From the NCBI RefSeq assembly GCF_002854065.1, contig NZ_CP024147.1: a stretch of DNA of 64,000 nucleotides, one strand, 5' to 3'. Position 1 is the stretch's first letter. Each line of letters begins with the position of its first letter. The notes below the pieces were generated by a model, which ran no database searches, was not told the DNA's origin, and worked only from the letters and a program-made list of their open reading frames with translations. The stretch is from Escherichia coli. GTDB taxonomy: Bacteria; Pseudomonadota; Gammaproteobacteria; Enterobacterales; Enterobacteriaceae. Shown here piece by piece: positions 1,389-63,162 of this stretch. The translations under genes were made by a program, and so were the position numbers.

Positions 1389-3215
1389 TCAGGCTCCTCG
1401 TGAAACAATAATCACCACCAGTACCGCCAGTTCAACCAGCGCCATCCGGCGGAACAGCAACGCACTCCCCTCGCACTGCCAGCCCGGCACCAGCGACACC
1501 GGATTCAGCCATTTGCGCAGTTTCAGCACCGGCGCAAACGCCTGTTTCACCGGCATGGCAAAACCGTGAGCGGTAATCACCATTGATTTTTCGTGGTCGT
1601 AACCGCACACCCAGGCCGCACCGCGGGAACGCGATGGCAAACGATCGCCTTTGCAAATCGCCATAATGATGAATGGCAGCAGCGGGCAGGCAATCAGCAG
1701 CAACGTGATCATCGGTTGAGAAACGGTGGTGTTAGCAGGCTCCAGCGGCAGAGGTACAGCAGCAGACAGCATCGGCAGCAGCCACGGCGCAGCAACACCG
1801 CCAATTACGCAGCAAATCGCCAGTGCCACTACGCTTACGCTCATCAGGAGCGGCGCACAGGTGGCGTTTTCGGCTTCTTTGGTACGCGGCGCGCCGAGGA
1901 ACGTGACGCCATAGACTTTCGCCATACACATAACCGCCAGCGCACCGGTAATTGCCAGCCCCACAGCGAGCAGCGGCCCCAGCAGACGTGCAACAAACGC
2001 GCCACTATTGCTCAGTTTGAAAAAGGATTGATAGATAACCCATTCCCCGGCAAACCCGTTCAGCGGCGGCAGCGCAGCCATTGCCATCAACCCGACTAAC
2101 ATGGCGATGGAGATAACCGGCATTTTCTTGCCAATACCACCGAGTTTTTCGATATCGCGATGACCGGTACGGAACCAGACGCTCCCCGCCCCGAGGAACA
2201 GTACGCTTTTGAACAGGCTATGGTTAAGCAGATGGTACAGACCACCGACCAGGCCAAGAGCAATCAGCGCCGGTTGTTCGAGCGCGATACCCGTTACGCC
2301 AGCGCCCAGCCCCAGCAGGATAATGCCGATATTTTCCAGGGTGTGGTAAGCCAGTAGACGCTGGATGTTATGCTCCATCAGCGCATACAGACCACCGACG
2401 AACGCGGTGATCATACCGAGCACCAGCAGCGCGATCCCCCACCACAGCGGTGCATTACCACCCAGCAGCGACAGGGTTAAAATGCCCAGCAGGCCAATTT
2501 TCATGACTACCGTAGAAAACAACGCGGCAGCTGGCGCAGAGGCGTTCGCATGTGCCTGCGGCACCCAGCCGTGCAGCGGAATAATCCCGGCCAGCAGGCC
2601 AAAGCCAATCACACCGAGCAGCCAGATATCGGAACCGAGCGGCAGCTGTTGCATACGCATATCCAGCAGGCGCAGATCCAGCGTGCCGTAACGCTGCCAC
2701 AGCAGCCAGCAAGCAATCGCCAGCAGCAGAGTGCCAAGACGCCCCAGCGCAAACCACAGTTTGCCCTCTTTGCTGTTGTTGGTGAGGAACACCGCACACA
2801 AGGCCATGACTTCAGCCATTACCACGAACATGCCGAGGTTGCTGGCGATGACGGCGCAGACGGCGGCAGCCATCAACATATTGATCTGCAAGCCGTTGCA
2901 CTTCACCTGCGCGTGGCGATGCCAGTCAATGTTGTAGAGGCTGACAAACAGACCGCACAGACCGAGCGTAATCAGCCAAATCGCGTTAAGCGGAGAGATT
3001 TGCACATCGTAGCTTACCAGCGACAGCGCACCGCTCACGCCAACCGCGCCAGTCAGTACTGTGAAGCCCGCTGCTGCCGTATACAGACTACCAACCGCGC
3101 CGCCAATTCCGGCTATCCAGCCGCTTAGCGCCTTTTGAAAAGAAAAGAGAAATGCCAGAACAGCGGCGGCGACAAACCACGCCACGCCGCTATTGATCAG
3201 GGAAATTGCGCTCAT
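1389..3215 (-). CDS. hycC: Formate hydrogenlyase membrane subunit HycC (NuoL/MnhA-like)
   Basis: 608-aa ORF, antiporter-like membrane protein, operon context. Confidence 0.9.
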   Translation of the reverse strand: MSAISLINSGVAWFVAAAVLAFLFSFQKALSGWIAGIGGAVGSLYTAAAGFTVLTGAVGVSGALSLVSYDVQISPLNAIWLITLGLCGLFVSLYNIDWHRHAQVKCNGLQINMLMAAAVCAVIASNLGMFVVMAEVMALCAVFLTNNSKEGKLWFALGRLGTLLLAIACWLLWQRYGTLDLRLLDMRMQQLPLGSDIWLLGVIGFGLLAGIIPLHGWVPQAHANASAPAAALFSTVVMKIGLLGILTLSLLGGNAPLWWGIALLVLGMITAFVGGLYALMEHNIQRLLAYHTLENIGIILLGLGAGVTGIALEQPALIALGLVGGLYHLLNHSLFKSVLFLGAGSVWFRTGHRDIEKLGGIGKKMPVISIAMLVGLMAMAALPPLNGFAGEWVIYQSFFKLSNSGAFVARLLGPLLAVGLAITGALAVMCMAKVYGVTFLGAPRTKEAENATCAPLLMSVSVVALAICCVIGGVAAPWLLPMLSAAVPLPLEPANTTVSQPMITLLLIACPLLPFIIMAICKGDRLPSRSRGAAWVCGYDHEKSMVITAHGFAMPVKQAFAPVLKLRKWLNPVSLVPGWQCEGSALLFRRMALVELAVLVVIIVSRGA

Positions 3216-3823
3216 TTAGCCTCTCCACTTTGAGCCTGCTGAAACAAGGTGAGATCGCCAAAGTCCGTGTTAAAGGTCAGCTCACGCTTACGTTTGCTGA
3301 CGCGGGCGATATCGGTGTTATCCACCAGATGCAGGGCTTTAGTCGGGCACATCCGCACGCAGGCCGGACCTTGTTCATCAAAGCTACAAAGGTCACATTT
3401 GACGGCGATCGCGCGAATACCTGGCACCCAGTCAAGCAATGTGCTGACACGCGCCGGAGCAGGCGGTGCCGGTGGCGCTTTCGGGGTATTGGCGTTTGCC
3501 GGAATATCCAGCGGACGGCTGCCGGAAAATTCGATTGCGCCAAACGGGCAGGCGATGCCGCACAGTTTGCAGCTTACGCACAGACTTTCATTCAACTGCA
3601 CGGCCCCATCAACGCGGGTGATGGCGTTAACCGGGCAGACCACCGCGCAGGGTGCATCTTCACAGTGGTGACAGAGCTGCGGCGCAGATTCTTTTTCATT
3701 GAGCATCACTCTCAGGCGCGGCATTGATTGCAGGCCGTGCTGGCGATGCGTCTCTGAACAGGCGGCCTCACAAGTGTGGCAACCGATACAGAGCGTGGAG
3801 TCAGCAATTACAAAACGATTCAC
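3212..3823 (-). CDS. hycB: Formate hydrogenlyase 4Fe-4S ferredoxin-type subunit HycB
   Basis: 203-aa ORF with multiple CxxCxxCxxxCP motifs; overlaps hycC start. Confidence 0.9.
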   Translation of the reverse strand: MNRFVIADSTLCIGCHTCEAACSETHRQHGLQSMPRLRVMLNEKESAPQLCHHCEDAPCAVVCPVNAITRVDGAVQLNESLCVSCKLCGIACPFGAIEFSGSRPLDIPANANTPKAPPAPPAPARVSTLLDWVPGIRAIAVKCDLCSFDEQGPACVRMCPTKALHLVDNTDIARVSKRKRELTFNTDFGDLTLFQQAQSGEAK

Positions 3824-15869: not shown

Positions 15870-16777
15870 ATGAAAACGGGATCTAGTTTCATGTCGGTAT
15901 CGTTGGCTTAGGGTCAATGGGAATGGGAGCAGCACTGTCATGTGTCCGCGCAGGTCTTTCTACCTGGGGCGCAGACCTGAACAGCAATGCCTGCGCTACG
16001 TTGAAAGAGGCAGGTGCTTGCGGGGTTTCTGATAACGCCGCGACGTTTGCCGAAAAACTGGACGCTCTGCTGGTGCTGGTGGTCAATGCGGCCCAGGTTA
16101 AACAGGTGCTGTTTGGTGAAACAGGCGTTGCACAACATCTGAAACCCGGTACGGCAGTAATGGTTTCTTCCACTATCGCTAGTGCTGATGCGCAAGAAAT
16201 TGCTACCGCTCTGGCTGGATTCGATCTGGAAATGCTGGATGCGCCAGTTTCTGGTGGTGCAGTAAAAGCCGCTAACGGTGAAATGACTGTCATGGCCTCC
16301 GGTAGCGATATTGCCTTTGAACGACTGGCACCCGTGCTGGAAGCCGTTGCCGGAAAAGTTTATCGCATAGGTGCAGAACCGGGACTAGGTTCGACCGTAA
16401 AAATTATTCACCAGTTGTTAGCGGGCGTACATATTGCTGCCGGAGCCGAAGCGATGGCACTTGCAGCCCGTGCGGGGATCCCGCTGGATGTGATGTATGA
16501 CGTCGTGACCAATGCCGCCGGAAATTCCTGGATGTTCGAAAACCGGATGCGTCATGTGGTGGATGGCGATTACACCCCGCATTCAGCCGTCGATATTTTT
16601 GTTAAGGATCTTGGTCTGGTTGCCGATACAGCCAAAGCCCTGCACTTCCCGCTGCCATTGGCCTCAACAGCATTGAATATGTTCACCAGCGCCAGTAACG
16701 CGGGTTACGGGAAAGAAGACGATAGCGCAGTTATCAAGATTTTCTCTGGCATCACTCTACCGGGAGCGAAATCATGA
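15870..16777 (+). pseudogene. ygbJ: L-threonate dehydrogenase-like gene with a frameshift at codon 6
   Basis: ATG at 15870 reads MKTGS then hits TAG at 15909; FHVGIVGLGSMG Rossmann motif continues in another frame directly after a TAG. Confidence 0.6.
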
Positions 16778-18036
16778 TCAAGATTGGCGTTATCGCCGAT
16801 GATTTTACCGGCGCGACGGATATCGCCAGTTTTCTGGTGGAAAACGGTCTACCAACGGTACAAATTAACGGTGTTCCAACAGGTAAAATGCCGGAAGCAA
16901 TCGACGCACTGGTGATCAGCCTGAAAACGCGTTCCTGTCCGGTGGTTGAAGCCACACAGCAATCGCTGGCGGCTCTGAGCTGGTTGCAACAGCAAGGTTG
17001 CAAACAGATCTATTTCAAATACTGCTCTACTTTCGACAGTACGGCTAAAGGTAATATCGGCCCGGTTACCGATGCATTAATGGATGCTCTCGACACGCCG
17101 TTTACGGTCTTCTCTCCGGCCCTGCCGGTCAACGGACGTACGGTTTATCAGGGGTATTTGTTCGTAATGAATCAACTGCTGGCCGAATCCGGGATGCGCC
17201 ATCACCCGGTAAATCCCATGACCGACAGCTATCTTCCCCGTCTGGTTGAAGCGCAATCCACAGGGCGCTGCGGCGTCGTTTCGGCACATGTTTTCGAACA
17301 AGGTGTGGATGCCGTTCGTCAAGAGCTGGCTCGCTTACAGCAAGAGGGCTACCGCTACGCGGTGCTTGATGCGCTGACCGAACACCATCTGGAAATTCAG
17401 GGAGAAGCCTTGCGCGATGCCCCACTGGTAACGGGCGGTTCTGGTCTGGCGATTGGCCTGGCCCGGCAGTGGGCGCAAGAAAACGGTAACCAGGCTCGCA
17501 AAGCAGGGCATCCGCTCGCTGGGCGCGGCGTAGTGCTCTCCGGTTCATGCTCTCAAATGACCAACCGCCAGGTGGCACATTACCGTCAAATTGCACCAGC
17601 CCGTGAAGTTGATGTGGCACGCTGCCTCTCAATTGAAACTCTGGCCGCTTATGCACACGAACTGGCAGAGTGGGTTCTGGGCCAGGAAAGTGTACTTGCT
17701 CCACTGGTTTTTGCCACCGCCAGCACTGACGCATTGGCAGCAATTCAACAGCAATACGGTGCACAAAAAGCCAGTCAGGCAGTAGAAACACTGTTTTCTC
17801 AACTAGCGGCGCGGTTAGCAGCGGAAGGCGTGACACGCTTTATTGTCGCAGGCGGTGAGACCTCCGGCGTAGTCACACAGAGCCTGGGAATAAAAGGGTT
17901 TCATATTGGCCCAACCATTTCCCCCGGCGTGCCGTGGGTAAACGCACTGGATAAGCCTGTCTCACTCGCCCTTAAATCTGGCAACTTCGGTGATGAAGCC
18001 TTTTTTTCACGAGCCCAAAGAGAGTTTTTATCATGA
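16774..18036 (+). CDS. ygbK: 3-oxo-tetronate kinase (DUF1537 family)
   Basis: 420-aa ORF starting MIKIGVIADDFTGATD; overlaps ygbJ stop and ygbL start. Confidence 0.8.
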   Translation: MIKIGVIADDFTGATDIASFLVENGLPTVQINGVPTGKMPEAIDALVISLKTRSCPVVEATQQSLAALSWLQQQGCKQIYFKYCSTFDSTAKGNIGPVTDALMDALDTPFTVFSPALPVNGRTVYQGYLFVMNQLLAESGMRHHPVNPMTDSYLPRLVEAQSTGRCGVVSAHVFEQGVDAVRQELARLQQEGYRYAVLDALTEHHLEIQGEALRDAPLVTGGSGLAIGLARQWAQENGNQARKAGHPLAGRGVVLSGSCSQMTNRQVAHYRQIAPAREVDVARCLSIETLAAYAHELAEWVLGQESVLAPLVFATASTDALAAIQQQYGAQKASQAVETLFSQLAARLAAEGVTRFIVAGGETSGVVTQSLGIKGFHIGPTISPGVPWVNALDKPVSLALKSGNFGDEAFFSRAQREFLS

Positions 18037-33907: not shown

Positions 33908-34945
33908 ATGTTTTCCGCATTGCGCCACCGTACCGCTGCCCTGGCGCTCGGCGTATGCTTTATTCTCCCCGTACACGCCTCGTCACCTAAACCTGGCGAT
34001 TTTGCTAATACCCAGGCACGACATATTGCTACTTTCTTTCCGGGACGCATGACCGGAACTCCTGCAGAAATGTTATCTGCCGATTATATTCGCCAACAGT
34101 TTCAGCAAATGGGTTATCGCAGTGATATTCGGACATTTAATAGTCGGTATATTTATACCGCCCGCGATAATCGCAAGAGCTGGCATAACGTGACGGGAAG
34201 TACGGTGATTGCCGCTCATGAAGGCAAAGCGCCGCAGCAGATCATCATTATGGCGCATCTGGATACTTACGCCCCGCTGAGCGATGCTGACGCCGATGCC
34301 AATCTCGGCGGGCTGACGTTACAAGGAATGGATGATAACGCCGCAGGTTTAGGTGTCATGCTGGAATTGGCAGAACGCCTGAAAAATACGCCTACCGAGT
34401 ATGGTATTCGATTTGTGGCGACCAGCGGCGAAGAGGAAGGGAAATTAGGCGCTGAGAATTTACTCAAGCGGATGAGTGACACCGAAAAGAAAAATACGCT
34501 GCTGGTGATTAATCTCGATAACTTAATTGTTGGCGATAAATTGTATTTCAACAGCGGTGTAAAAACCCCTGAAGCAGTAAGGAAATTAACGCGCGACAGG
34601 GCGCTGGCAATTGCGCGTAGTCATGGAATTGCCGCAACGACCAATCCGGGTTTGAATAAAAATTATCCGAAAGGCACTGGGTGTTGTAATGACGCAGAAA
34701 TATTCGACAAAGCGGGCATTGCTGTACTTTCGGTGGAAGCGACTAACTGGAATCTTGGGAATAAGGATGGTTATCAGCAACGCGCAAAAACAGCCGCATT
34801 CCCTGCGGGAAATAGCTGGCATGACGTAAGACTGGATAATCAACAGCATATTGATAAGGCACTTCCAGGAAGAATAGAACGTCGCTGCCGTGACGTTATG
34901 CGGATAATGCTACCACTGGTGAAGGAGCTGGCGAAGGCGTCTTGA
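33908..34945 (+). CDS. iap: Alkaline phosphatase isozyme conversion aminopeptidase
   Basis: 345-aa ORF with signal peptide and M28 peptidase features. Confidence 0.85.
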   Translation: MFSALRHRTAALALGVCFILPVHASSPKPGDFANTQARHIATFFPGRMTGTPAEMLSADYIRQQFQQMGYRSDIRTFNSRYIYTARDNRKSWHNVTGSTVIAAHEGKAPQQIIIMAHLDTYAPLSDADADANLGGLTLQGMDDNAAGLGVMLELAERLKNTPTEYGIRFVATSGEEEGKLGAENLLKRMSDTEKKNTLLVINLDNLIVGDKLYFNSGVKTPEAVRKLTRDRALAIARSHGIAATTNPGLNKNYPKGTGCCNDAEIFDKAGIAVLSVEATNWNLGNKDGYQQRAKTAAFPAGNSWHDVRLDNQQHIDKALPGRIERRCRDVMRIMLPLVKELAKAS

Positions 34946-35070
34946 TGGGTTTGAAATGATGACTCCCGTGCCTGCAGGAAATCAATGCCACCTGAAACAG
35001 AGAATAAAAAAGGGTGCAGGAGGCCAAACCATCACAATTCAATACGCGGGGTTTTACCCCCGCGTGGTGG

Positions 35071-35223
35071 CTACTTCTTCGATTCGTAAGCGAGAACTGC
35101 CTTAAACTCCATACCACGCTCTCTGATACTCAACTCACATAACGAGTCGCCTACCATGAGCGTGAATCCCAGTACTGTACAACACAGTACTATGATTGCC
35201 ACAAGGGCATATTTTGTTAGCAT
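35071..35223 (-). CDS. Hok-family type I toxin (hokX-like), intact 50-aa ORF
   Basis: [50 protein letters not shown]: TM helix plus conserved SLCEL...LAYES C-terminus; GGGAGG SD 6 nt upstream. Confidence 0.75.
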
Positions 35224-35430
35224 GTCTTGCCTCCCTGCAAAGAAGAGACTAACATCCGAATTGCTACGTTCGAACGCGAGCCTCAGGTTGATAGAAATAT
35301 CGCCTGGGGCTTTTGTCCATCTGGAACCTCGCGAATGCTTAACGCCAGACAGCCTCAAGCACCCGACGCCATTCTATACCTGATAATTCTTCCAGCGGCG
35401 TTCACGTTTAAAATCAGGAATGCTGCTCGC

Positions 35431-35470
35431 AAAATAAAAACGCCCCCATCATTTCTGACAGAGGCGTTTA
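35431..35470 (-). terminator. Likely cysJIH operon terminator
   Basis: Minus strand hairpin (aacgcctc...gggggcgtt) followed by TTTTTATTTT just downstream of cysH stop. Confidence 0.4.
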
Positions 35471-35486
35471 ATTTATCCGGCAATAT

Positions 35487-56190: not shown

Positions 56191-57843
<1,653 letters not shown>

Positions 57844-58055: not shown

Positions 58056-58847
58056 TTAGAGATCAATTTCCTGCCGTTTTACCTGTTGCCAGACTTCTTC
58101 CATTGTTTCGAGGTCAACACCTGTCATTTCCAGTCCACGCGCGGCAACAATACGCTCCACTTCGCGAAAACGACGCTCGAATTTTTCGTTCGCTTTTTGC
58201 AATGCGATTTCCGCTTTTGTCCCTAAATGACGAGCCAGATTGACCGTGGCAAACAGCAGGTCCCCCATTTCCTCCTCCAGTTTAGCCTGGTCGACAACAG
58301 CCTGCCGCGCTTCGTACATCACCTCGTCGATCTCTTCGTAGACTTTATCGACTACCGGACCAAGCGTCGTCCAATCGAAGCCAACGTTGGCGCAACGTTT
58401 CTGGATTTTTTGCGCACGCATTAAAGCCGGTAAACTACGAGGAATATCGTCCAGCGCCGAATGCTGCGCTTTCTGCGCGCGCTCTCCGGTTTTGATTTGC
58501 TCCCAACGGGCAAGCACTTCACTACTGTTTTCGGCAGAACTGTCAGCAAAAACATGCGGATGGCGACGCTCTAATTTATCGCTAATCGCAGCGCAAATAT
58601 CATTAAAGTCAAAGCGCCCTTCTTCCTGAGCCATTTGTGCGTAAAACACCACCTGGAACAGCAGATCGCCGAGTTCACCGCGCAGATCGTCAAAATCTTC
58701 ACGGGCGATGGCGTCCAGCACTTCGTAGGTTTCTTCAAGGGTGTAAGGCGCAATGGTGGCAAATGTCTGCTCTTTATCCCACGGGCAGCCGTTTTCCGGG
58801 TCGCGCAGGCGCTGCATAATAGTGAGCAAACGGTCGATTTGATTCAT
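58056..58847 (-). CDS. mazG: Nucleoside triphosphate pyrophosphohydrolase MazG
   Basis: 263-aa ORF, tandem MazG domains. Confidence 0.9.
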   Translation of the reverse strand: MNQIDRLLTIMQRLRDPENGCPWDKEQTFATIAPYTLEETYEVLDAIAREDFDDLRGELGDLLFQVVFYAQMAQEEGRFDFNDICAAISDKLERRHPHVFADSSAENSSEVLARWEQIKTGERAQKAQHSALDDIPRSLPALMRAQKIQKRCANVGFDWTTLGPVVDKVYEEIDEVMYEARQAVVDQAKLEEEMGDLLFATVNLARHLGTKAEIALQKANEKFERRFREVERIVAARGLEMTGVDLETMEEVWQQVKRQEIDL

Positions 58848-58917
58848 TAGAATGTCCTGAAAATTGCAGGTCCGTCAGGTGGAAACCTGTGACCAGAATA
58901 GAAGTGAGTTAGTAACA

Positions 58918-59253
58918 CTACCCAATCAGTACGTTAATTTTGGCTTTAATGAGTTGTAATTCCTCTGGGGCAACTGTTCCTTTCTTCGTTGCTCCTCTTG
59001 CCCGCCAGGCGATACTTTTTACCTGATCAGCTAACGCTACGCCATCACGTTCCTGACCGGATAAAACAACTTCGAACGGATATCCTTTTGATTGCGTTGT
59101 ACAAGGAACACACAGACACATACCTGTTTTGTTGTTGTACATGAACGGACTCAGGACAACAGCCGGACGATGTCCGGCTTGCTCGCTACCTTTTGTCGGG
59201 TCAAAATCAACCCAAATCAGATCGCCCATATCGGGTACGTATCGGCTTACCAT
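58918..59253 (-). CDS. mazF: Endoribonuclease toxin MazF
   Basis: 111-aa [28 protein letters not shown]. Confidence 0.9.
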   Translation of the reverse strand: MVSRYVPDMGDLIWVDFDPTKGSEQAGHRPAVVLSPFMYNNKTGMCLCVPCTTQSKGYPFEVVLSGQERDGVALADQVKSIAWRARGATKKGTVAPEELQLIKAKINVLIG

Positions 59254-59501
59254 TACCAGACTTCCTTATCTTTCGGCTCTCCCCAGTCGATATTCTCGTG
59301 GAGGTTTTCCGGCGTGATGTCGTTGACCAGTTCAGCAAGCGTAAATACGGGCTCTTTACGCACTGGCTCAATAATTAATTTGCCATCCACCAGGTCAATC
59401 TTCACTTCATCATCAATATTCAGATTGAGCGCCTGCATTAACGTAGCCGGGATCCGCACCGCCGGTGAATTTCCCCAACGCTTTACGCTACTGTGGATCA
59501 T
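59253..59501 (-). CDS. mazE: Antitoxin MazE
   Basis: 82-aa [21 protein letters not shown]; overlaps mazF start. Confidence 0.9.
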
Positions 59502-59507
59502 AACCCT

Positions 59508-59560
59508 TTCCTCAAACCGCTATCATATGTAGATACAGTATATATCAATCTACATTGTAG
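59508..59560 (-). promoter_or_regulatory. mazEF promoter region with alternating palindrome operator
   Basis: ttgatatatactgtatctacatatgatagc on minus strand just upstream of mazE. Confidence 0.45.
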
Positions 59561-59578
59561 ATACGAGCAAATTTCTGC

Positions 59579-61813
59579 CTAACTCCCGTGCAACCGACGC
59601 GCGTCGATAACATCCGGCACCTGGTTGAGTTTACCCAGCACGCGACCCAGCACCTGCAGGTTGTAAATCTCAATGGTCATGTCGATGGTCGCCAGTTGCT
59701 GTTTGGTGTCGCTACGGCTGGCAACGCCAAGTACGTTCACCTTCTCGTTGGCGAGAATGGTCGTGATATCACGTAACAACCCACTACGATCATTAGCCAC
59801 CACGCGGACCACCAGCGAATATCCGGCGGAGTAGCTCTCGCCCCATACCGCGTCAACAATGCGTTCTGGCGCATGGGAGCGCAGTTCCGCCAGTTGTTCG
59901 CAATCGGCGCGGTGTACTGAAATACCGCGTCCCTGGGTAATGAAGCCGACAATCTCATCTCCAGGAATCGGCTGGCAGCAGCGCGCGATGTGGTGCATCA
60001 GGTTACCAACACCTTCAACCACCACACGACCGTTATCTTTACTGCGGTTTTGCGGCGTGTAGCTTTTTTGCTGAAGCTGTTTCAGCGCGGCGGCGTCCTG
60101 CTCTTCGGCACTCGGCTTATTAAATTGCGATTGCAGGAAGTTCACCATCTGATTGAGACGGATATCCCCGCCACCAATCGCCGCCAGCAACTCGTCGACA
60201 TCATTGAAGTTGTAACGCGGCAGCAGATGTTTTTCTGCTTCTTTCAGGCTGATCCCCAGATGTTCCAGCTCGTCGTCAAGGATTTGCCGCCCAGCCAGAA
60301 TGTTTTTGTCACGGTCCTGTTTACGGAACCAGGCGTGAATTTTCGAACGCCCACGGCTGGTTGTGACGTAACCGAGGTTTGGGTTTAACCAGTCACGGCT
60401 GGGGTTCGGCTGTTTCTGGGTGATAATTTCAATCTGGTCGCCCATCTGCAGCTGGTAGGTGAACGGCACAATGCGCCCGCCAATTTTTGCCCCGATGCAG
60501 CGGTGTCCGACATCACTGTGGATGTGGTAAGCGAAGTCCAGCGGCGTTGATCCCGCAGGCAAATCAACGACATCACCTTTCGGCGTAAAGACATACACCC
60601 GGTCGTCAAACACCTGACTACGTACTTCGTCGAGCATTTCGCCGGAATCAGCCATCTCTTCCTGCCACGCAATCAGTTTACGCAGCCAGGCAATCCGGTC
60701 TTCATGTCCCGAACGTGCGCCGCCAGCTGCCGCGCCCTCTTTATATTTCCAGTGCGCAGCAACACCCAACTCTGCATCTTCATGCATCTGTTTGGTGCGG
60801 ATTTGGATCTCAACGGTTTTTCCACCCGGCCCCAGAACCACGGTATGAATAGACTGATAACCGTTTGGTTTCGGGTTAGCGACGTAATCGTCAAACTCAT
60901 CCGGCAGGTGGCGATAGTGAGTGTGCACTATCCCCAGTGCGGCATAACAATCCTGTAAACGCTCGGCGACAATACGTACCGCACGCACATCAAACAGCTC
61001 ATCGAAGGCGAGGTTCTTTTTCTGCATTTTGCGCCAGATGCTGTAGATGTGTTTCGGACGACCATACACTTCAGCTTTAACGCCTTCAGCTTTCATCTCA
61101 GCGCGCAGATGGCCGACAAACTCTTCGATATAGTGTTCGCGGTCGAGACGGCGTTCATGCAACAGTTTTGCGATGCGTTTGTATTCGGTCGGGTGGAGAT
61201 AACGGAAGCAGTAATCTTCCAGCTCCCATTTCAGTTGCCCAATCCCAAGACGGTTTGCCAACGGCGCGTAGATATTGGTGCACTCTTTTGCCGCCAGTAC
61301 GCGTTCATCTTCCGGCGCATCTTTTACTTCACGCAGATGAGCAATACGCTCCGCCAGTTTGATGACCACGCAGCGAAAATCATCGACCATCGCCAATAAC
61401 ATCCGGCGAACGTTATCGACCTGTTCGGAGGAAACAGAATCAGTGTGCGTCGCTTTCAGCTGGCGGATCGCCGCCATATCACGCACGCCGTGAATAAGGT
61501 TAACGACCGACTTACCGACGCTCTCACGCAGCACATCTTCGCTGACTACGTTGGCATCCGCCAGAGGGAAAAGCAGCGCCGCCCGCAGCGTGTCAATGTC
61601 CATACTTAATGTCGAGAGGATCTCCACCATCTCAACACCACGCCACAATAACAGACTGGCATCCGGATGCCCCTGCGTCTGTTGCAGACAATACGCCCAG
61701 GTTTCGGCTAAGCACTCACACGACTTCTGGCTGGTAATACCCAGACTTGCGATCCATTTTTCCGGATCAAATTCACCAGCCTTATTGATATGTGCACTTC
61801 TTACCGCAACCAT
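59579..61813 (-). CDS. relA: GTP pyrophosphokinase, (p)ppGpp synthetase I
   Basis: 744-aa ORF, recognised RelA. Confidence 0.95.
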   Translation of the reverse strand: MVAVRSAHINKAGEFDPEKWIASLGITSQKSCECLAETWAYCLQQTQGHPDASLLLWRGVEMVEILSTLSMDIDTLRAALLFPLADANVVSEDVLRESVGKSVVNLIHGVRDMAAIRQLKATHTDSVSSEQVDNVRRMLLAMVDDFRCVVIKLAERIAHLREVKDAPEDERVLAAKECTNIYAPLANRLGIGQLKWELEDYCFRYLHPTEYKRIAKLLHERRLDREHYIEEFVGHLRAEMKAEGVKAEVYGRPKHIYSIWRKMQKKNLAFDELFDVRAVRIVAERLQDCYAALGIVHTHYRHLPDEFDDYVANPKPNGYQSIHTVVLGPGGKTVEIQIRTKQMHEDAELGVAAHWKYKEGAAAGGARSGHEDRIAWLRKLIAWQEEMADSGEMLDEVRSQVFDDRVYVFTPKGDVVDLPAGSTPLDFAYHIHSDVGHRCIGAKIGGRIVPFTYQLQMGDQIEIITQKQPNPSRDWLNPNLGYVTTSRGRSKIHAWFRKQDRDKNILAGRQILDDELEHLGISLKEAEKHLLPRYNFNDVDELLAAIGGGDIRLNQMVNFLQSQFNKPSAEEQDAAALKQLQQKSYTPQNRSKDNGRVVVEGVGNLMHHIARCCQPIPGDEIVGFITQGRGISVHRADCEQLAELRSHAPERIVDAVWGESYSAGYSLVVRVVANDRSGLLRDITTILANEKVNVLGVASRSDTKQQLATIDMTIEIYNLQVLGRVLGKLNQVPDVIDARRLHGS

Positions 61814-61860: not shown

Positions 61861-63162
61861 CTATTTAACGCGCGAGAAAAGTACCATCGATTCCAGATGT
61901 CCCGTGTGTGGGAACATATCCAGCATCGCCAGTCGCGCAATGGTATATCCTGCTTTTAATAACGCTTCGCTATCCCGAGCCAGCGTTGCAGGGTTACAGG
62001 ATACATAAACTATACGAATAGGTTCCAGTTTTATAATTTGCTGCATAACACCTGCGGCACCTGCTCGCGCCGGGTCCAGCAACACTTTATCGAAGCCGTT
62101 TTTCGCCCACGGCTGCTTTGTGACATCTTCTTCAAGATTTTCGTGATAAAACGTCACATTCTGTAAGCCATTAAGACGCGCATTCTGCTGGCCTTTTTCC
62201 ACCAGCGCCGGAACACCTTCTACACCGACCACACTGGCAGCTTGTGTCACCAATGGCAGTGTAAAGTTGCCCATACCGCAGAACAGATCCAGTACGCGAT
62301 CTTCAGGTTGCACATCCAGCCATTCCAACGCACGCGCTACCATTTTTTGGTTCACACCCGCATTGACCTGAATAAAATCGCGCGGGCTAAAAGTTAAGCG
62401 CAACCCGTTTGAGTCATACCAGGGCATCTCACCAGAGACGGTTTCGAGTATCTCACTATCGGGGGCGAGATACAGATCCAGGCCTTCAGAATGCGAAAAG
62501 CGTTCCAGTTTTTCGCGATCTGCCGAACTTAGCGGTGCGGTATGGCGCAAAATCATCAGCGTGCCGCTGGTTGCCTGTACCAGTTCAACATGACCAAGAT
62601 GGCGCATAGCTTGTAAGCTGCCCAGGCATGCCCTGACTTTGGGCAGCAATGCTTCAAGTTGGGGCACTAAAATGGGGCATTGTTTAACGTCGACAATGTC
62701 ACTGGAGCCCGCTTTGCGAAACCCCATCTGAAGTTGCTGTGTTTTCGGTAAGTAATTCAGACTTAAACGCGCGCGACGGCGATAGCCCCAGGGAACATCG
62801 GCGATCACTTCAGAGACTTCGTGTTTCATTAATCGGGCGAGTGCCGCACTTTTGCTTCGCTGCTGTAAATCCACGCTGGCGTGTTGTTGCTGACAGCCGC
62901 CGCATACGCCAAAATGAGGACAGCGTGGCGTTTCGCGTTCCGGGCTATCGCTTAACCGGCGTACGACTTTAGCGCGGGCATACTGTTTTTTATCTTCAGT
63001 AACAGTAACTTCCGCGTTTTCCTGCGGCAATAATCCGGGGATAAATAGCGTTTTGCCGTTATGTCGCGCCACGCCCTGACCAAAAGAGTCGAGGTCGTTG
63101 ACTGAAACGGTTATGATCTGACGCGTCGTCGTGCGTCGTTTTGCAGAGTAGAATTGCGCCAT
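61861..63162 (-). CDS. rlmD: 23S rRNA (uracil1939-C5)-methyltransferase
   Basis: 433-aa ORF, TRAM domain plus Fe-S cysteines and SAM-MTase fold. Confidence 0.9.

Follow-up and report, generated by a model that had tools for sequence, protein, structure and literature searches.

Gene organization of the relA-mazEF-mazG region and its products

The window, which here denotes the whole stretch of 64,000 nucleotides of Escherichia coli DNA that was analysed (contig NZ_CP024147.1), carries on its minus strand the gene order pyrG-mazG-mazF-mazE-relA-rlmD, with gene annotations transferred from 100%-identical genome records and from K-12. The outer genes pyrG and rlmD correspond in the list of open reading frames to positions 56191-57828 and 61861-63162, respectively, both on the minus strand. 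The relA gene, encoding GTP pyrophosphokinase and named as such in matching genomes, occupies 59579..61813 on the minus strand and ends in a TAG stop codon at 59581-59579. From this stop codon up to the mazE start codon extends a 77-bp intergenic spacer (59502..59578, minus strand), which contains the mazEF promoter-operator region. On the same strand follow mazE (59253..59501), whose ORF encodes the antitoxin of 82 amino acids, mazF (58918..59253) encoding the endoribonuclease toxin of 111 amino acids, and the downstream operon gene mazG (58056..58847) encoding an NTP pyrophosphohydrolase, whose ORF carries an E121G exchange at codon 121 as compared to K-12. A Shine-Dalgarno-like GAGG can be read in the sequence at 59510..59513 (minus strand), 8 nt before the mazE ATG.

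The mazE and mazF ORFs are without frameshifts or premature stops, and the antitoxin gene is located directly upstream of the toxin gene and is translationally coupled to it. A preliminary description of this DNA had the two genes overlapping by one codon at the shared coordinate 59253. The shared coordinate is correct and is also found in the K-12 annotation, but the overlap amounts to a single nucleotide (TAATG), with base 59253 in TGG TAA TGG serving as the final A of the mazE TAA and as the first A of the mazF ATG. The completeness of this type II toxin-antitoxin module, also proposed there, is upheld by the intactness of both ORFs and the identity of MazE and MazF to their K-12 counterparts.

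At the protein level, MazE was assigned to the Pfam family PF04014 (AbrB/SpoVT-type) with 52.9 bits (cut-off 24.7) and MazF to PF02452 (PemK-like endoribonuclease) with 84.8 bits (cut-off 23.1). Both proteins align with solved E. coli structures essentially from end to end, with E-values from ~5e-52 to 2e-73. Thus, in comparisons with the PDB, MazE matches 1MVF (E = 4.8e-52) and 1UB4 (E = 5.5e-52), with additional matches to 2MRN/2MRU, while MazF matches 3NFC, 5CK9 and 1UB4 at E about 1e-73. The MazF residues E24, R29 and T52, which we take to be the catalytic residues, are all present. An E24A mutant of MazF is inactive (PMC5888573). Also present in MazE are K7, R8, W9, N11 and R16, all of which are DNA contacts or anchors (PMC4333400).

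Base-by-base alignment from mazG through relA with K-12 MG1655 (NC_000913.3) as the reference revealed 3758 collinear bases with 65 substitutions, distributed as 12 in mazG, 5 in the mazF-mazG spacer, 3 in mazF, none in mazE, 1 in the relA-mazE spacer and 44 in relA. The protein sequences of MazE, MazF and RelA are those of K-12, with all three changes in mazF being synonymous. Taken together, mazE and mazF are less diverged from K-12 (3/584 nt) than either relA (44/2235) or mazG (12/792).

On the plus strand, coordinates transferred from the MG1655 annotation place the antisense ncRNA aMEF (ameF) at 59213..59612, which takes it from a start inside mazF over mazE and the complete operator into the last 34 nt of relA. 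Transcription of aMEF stimulates mazEF expression (PMC8749433). The synonymous mazF substitutions map to 59146, 59164 and 59176, which correspond to -67, -49 and -37 from the annotated aMEF 5' end, and all three are located inside a 75-bp fragment with aMEF promoter activity (PMC8749433).

Elsewhere in the window, iap (33908-34945) is immediately followed, in the interval 34946-35486, by a type I toxin-antitoxin locus of the hok/sok family, with sok at 35208-35364 on the minus strand (Rfam sok RF01794, 105 bits), and next by cysH. In K-12, iap and sokX/cysH are separated by the complete type I-E CRISPR-Cas locus (cas3 to cas2), and of 5426 complete E. coli genomes no more than 1292 share the contiguous iap-hok/sok-cysH arrangement of the window. 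No CRISPR-like array was found in the window. The only TRF tandem repeat of the window is a 24-nt unit repeated twice with 83% matches at 16843-16889, inside the ORF 16774-18036.

The promoter-operator region upstream of mazE

The relA-mazE spacer contains at 59518..59567 (minus strand) the full 'cab' MazE/MazEF operator, an alternating palindrome, with 50 of 50 bases matching the oligonucleotide CTCGTATCTACAATGTAGATTGATATATACTGTATCTACATATGATAGCG (PMC4333400). All four oligonucleotides of Zorzini et al. 2015, i.e. cab with its 50 genomic bases, c, a and b, match the window exactly. The last T of the printed 51-mer cab differs from K-12 and from the window alike, and hence belongs to the oligonucleotide and not to the genome. 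In the direction toward mazE, the order of sites on the minus strand is c, a and b. Site c, GTATCTACAATGTAGATTG, covers 59546..59564 and comprises the palindrome ATCTACA-A-TGTAGAT, being identified by exact oligonucleotide match and by its repeats, while site a, TTGATATATACTGT, at 59535..59548, with an ATATAT palindrome within it at 59545-59540, and site b, ATATACTGTATCTACATAT, at 59525..59543 were each identified by exact oligonucleotide match. Binding of MazE to operator DNA has been measured by ITC, EMSA and NMR, with three MazE dimers binding to c, a and b with a KD of about 0.5-5 µM, and site a was used for the MazE-DNA NMR/SAXS model 2MRU (PMC4333400).

A repeat search of the spacer region revealed two perfect inverted repeats, ATCTACA/TGTAGAT at 59548-59554 / 59556-59562 and ATGTAGAT/ATCTACAT at 59527-59534 / 59548-59555, along with a 9-nt direct repeat TGTAGATAC, whose copies are 28 bp apart. 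The middle arm ATGTAGAT (59555-59548) is complementary to the upstream ATCTACA (59562-59556) as well as to the downstream ATCTACAT (59534-59527), and the sharing of this one middle arm by both inverted repeats constitutes the c-a-b "alternating" geometry. The preliminary description had presented as the alternating palindrome a 30-mer, TTGATATATACTGTATCTACATATGATAGC (59548..59519, minus strand), which consists of site a, site b and GATAGC. Its location was given correctly, since it is found once in the window, within the spacer at 59502-59578 and 17 nt ahead of the mazE start codon (ATG at 59501). However, this 30-mer takes in sites a and b but omits site c and with it two of the three arms: the only complete arm inside it is the downstream ATCTACAT, the other two being located upstream at 59562-59548. 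The range 59502-59578 ascribed to the palindrome does hold the whole operator, site c included.

Alignment to the K-12 promoter region, proposed as a check in the same description, showed that 76 of the 77 spacer bases agree with MG1655 and that the sole difference, at 59576, falls outside the operator. The 50-bp operator (59567..59518) is identical to that of MG1655, and sites c, a and b are without any change. The operator is thus intact, as had been claimed; substitutions in the palindrome were looked for and none were found. This is the E. coli mazEF operator, a known element, and as far as sequence can tell it is almost certainly the promoter-operator native to the chromosomal type II toxin-antitoxin operon mazEF (chpA), in its wild-type form. 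No sequence features arguing against the identity of a wild-type mazEF operator were seen in the window.

P2, P3 and the Fis site were reportedly defined by Marianovsky et al. 2001 (JBC). The two promoters P2 and P3 are 13 bp apart and are located within or overlap the palindrome; MazE represses them, MazE-MazF does so to a greater extent, and a Fis site further upstream activates them (PMC4803016, PMC3879964). On the minus strand of the window, a promoter scan identified a -10-like TACAAT inside site c (59554..59559), which together with TAGGCA (59581-59576) and a 16-bp spacer is the sole promoter-like match upstream of site a. Reading of the sequence gave two more -10-like hexamers, TATACT inside site a (59537..59542) and TATGAT at the 3' edge of site b (59522..59527). 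These three hexamers are candidate elements of P2 and P3. Adjoining site c upstream is a Fis-like 15-mer, GGCAGAAATTTGCTC (GGCCGAAATTTGCTC in K-12), at 59565..59579 (minus strand), as compared to the consensus GNNYAWWWWWTRNNC. The positions of P2, P3 and the Fis site on the window are inferred. The transcription start site supplements of Kim 2012 contain no mazE entry, with the "mazE" matches in the main text referring to Methanosarcina mazei, and a literature search for the position of the Fis site at mazEF gave nothing usable.

In comparison with characterized systems, the K-12 mazEF (chpA) operator has the same 50 bases, is likewise situated in a 77-bp spacer from the relA stop codon to the mazE start codon and comes with the same MazE and MazF and the same TAATG overlap, and the window is set apart from the K-12 locus by A in place of C at 59576 and by the three synonymous changes in mazF. 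The parD (kis/kid) system of plasmid R1 and the E. coli chpB system are MazEF-family modules with AbrB-type antitoxins, which share the families PF04014/PF02452 with the window and, like mazEF, are autoregulated by antitoxin-toxin complexes on palindromic repeats overlapping the promoter (PMC3879964). Kid could be detected as a MazF relative in the PDB comparison (1M1F, E = 7.6e-9). However, the parD operator is made up of two regions, I and II, and its sequence and geometry are unlike those of the chpA/mazEF operator of the window. The AbrB-type VapB2 of Rickettsia felis (PDB 3ZVK) recognises a central ATATATACT core, which is also present in site a (PMC4333400), but this system belongs to another organism, has the PIN-domain protein VapC as its toxin and is without the c-a-b three-site arrangement.

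Distribution of mazEF and its operator among E. coli genomes

Of 5426 complete E. coli genomes, 4418 carry the mazEF region, chromosomal every time, and the other 1008 (about 19%) lack it, while relA is found in 5425. All 4418 mazEF-bearing genomes contain the operator; in 4012 of them the aligned part of the 50-bp sequence is at least 99% identical, and all 50 bases are matched in about 3500-3600 (about 80%, as estimated from the ranks of evenly spaced rows). The exact 77-bp spacer of the window is found in about 340-408 of the 4418 (about 8-9%). Six variant spacers, K-12 and strain A30 not counted, exhibit changes upstream of c, downstream of b and once inside c, with sites a and b unvaried in all six; the genomes were picked by a ranking of spacer divergence, and these changes show where variants fall and not how frequent they are. 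At 59576, C is present in all seven other spacers read, strain A30 excepted.

In the ST131 strain JJ1886, a 95-bp spacer separates relA from mazG. Homology to the window (about 58890-59578) breaks off precisely at the end of the relA stop codon. It sets in again about 40 bp short of the mazG ATG, and the roughly 50 bp in between are unrelated (positions 3000-3140 of the locus). These break points indicate that mazE, mazF and the operator behave as one presence/absence cassette. Strain SW07163 (NZ_CM129852.1), one of three such genomes, matches the mazEF region in part, with 53% coverage in two places, which suggests that its mazEF copy is disrupted or interrupted.

Alternative readings of the spacer and probable autoregulation of mazEF

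The repeats set in 14 nt past the relA stop, and base pairs form between AUGUAGAU and AUCUACAU in the RNA centroid fold, both of which could be taken to mean that they are mainly an RNA element, be it a relA terminator or attenuator, a structured 5' leader or a 3' end. However, folding of the 106-nt transcript yielded an MFE of -18 kcal/mol against a shuffle mean of -21.8 (z = +1.31), with 186 of 200 shuffles folding as well or better, and the palindrome of site c leaves a 1-nt loop, so that its hairpin cannot form. Furthermore, no terminator-like site is present on either strand within 59502-59620, and the hairpin is AT-rich without a following U-run. This reading was hence rejected on the grounds of a fold no better than that of shuffled sequences and of the lack of a terminator-like site in that interval, and, with direct binding of MazE published for these exact DNA sequences (PMC4333400), it is highly improbable. 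A purely fortuitous symmetry, arising without function from an AT-rich spacer, could draw on the finding that an 8-nt perfect arm occurs in 116 of 5000 mononucleotide shuffles of the spacer (2.3%), but >=3 7-mer inverted pairs occur in only 29 of 5000 (0.6%), sites a and b are invariant in every variant spacer sampled and the identical 50-mer is carried by about 80% of mazEF-bearing genomes. Taken by itself, the symmetry of the spacer appears only modestly non-random, and it is the identity to the experimentally characterised operator that decides. As the element is base for base the operator with measured MazE binding (PMC4333400), the published binding on the identical sequence refutes a chance origin, to which we assign even less probability than to an RNA element.

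A different question concerns base 59576, since the operator might be intact and regulation still be shifted with respect to K-12 by the C-to-A exchange, acting via half of a Fis site, a -35-like hexamer or both. This base, A on the mRNA strand and C in K-12, is the third past the relA stop and precedes the operator match by 9 bp. It occupies position 4 in the Fis-like 15-mer GGC[C/A]GAAATTTGCTC (59579-59565), the best such match within 180 bp ahead of mazE, with two mismatches to the consensus in the window and one in K-12, and reviews do put the Fis site upstream of the palindrome. At the same time it is the sixth base of the -35-like hexamer, which reads TAGGCC in K-12 and TAGGCA in the window, and only the latter, combined with the -10 TACAAT, reaches the threshold of the promoter scan. 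The exact spacer is moreover common to 341-408 genomes, and the other spacers read have C, except for that of A30. However, 36 matches to the degenerate Fis consensus were found in the window as compared to ~46 expected by chance, and the consensus hence has no discriminating power in this window; besides, the predicted effects are opposed, with a weaker Fis site on the one hand and a better -35 on the other. A regulatory effect of 59576 is therefore conceivable but unlikely to matter, and it is slightly less likely still that the A at this position alters Fis activation or the strength of P2 in such a way that the sublineage has a basal MazE:MazF set-point unlike that of K-12.

For the wild-type mazEF operator as the preferred reading, the mechanism established in K-12 provides the model of how the locus would function in this strain. 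As published for the identical operator sequence, three MazE dimers, each with an AbrB-type swapped-hairpin N-terminal domain, sit side by side on c, a and b with an affinity in the micromolar range, and MazF dimers, bound to the disordered C-termini of MazE, confer a higher affinity for the operator, which falls again with a large excess of MazF. The bound complex represses the closely spaced promoters P2 and P3, and Fis activates from a site just upstream of the palindrome. The antisense RNA aMEF, starting inside mazF and running back over this region, in turn stimulates mazEF expression (PMC4333400, PMC4803016, PMC3879964, PMC8749433). In this strain, the same would be expected. Upon degradation of MazE, repression would be lifted and free MazF would presumably cut RNA at ACA. 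Binding of MazE and MazE-MazF with transcriptional repression at the operator of the window is predicted from the identity of its DNA and proteins to those used in the published binding experiments (PMC4333400), and this strain probably autoregulates mazEF in the same manner as K-12.

Given that mazEF is missing in about 19% of genomes, its intactness is an informative attribute of the strain and not a discovery. The strain carries a complete wild-type mazEF with the operator of K-12, and hence results on the autoregulation of mazEF obtained in K-12 should transfer directly to it.
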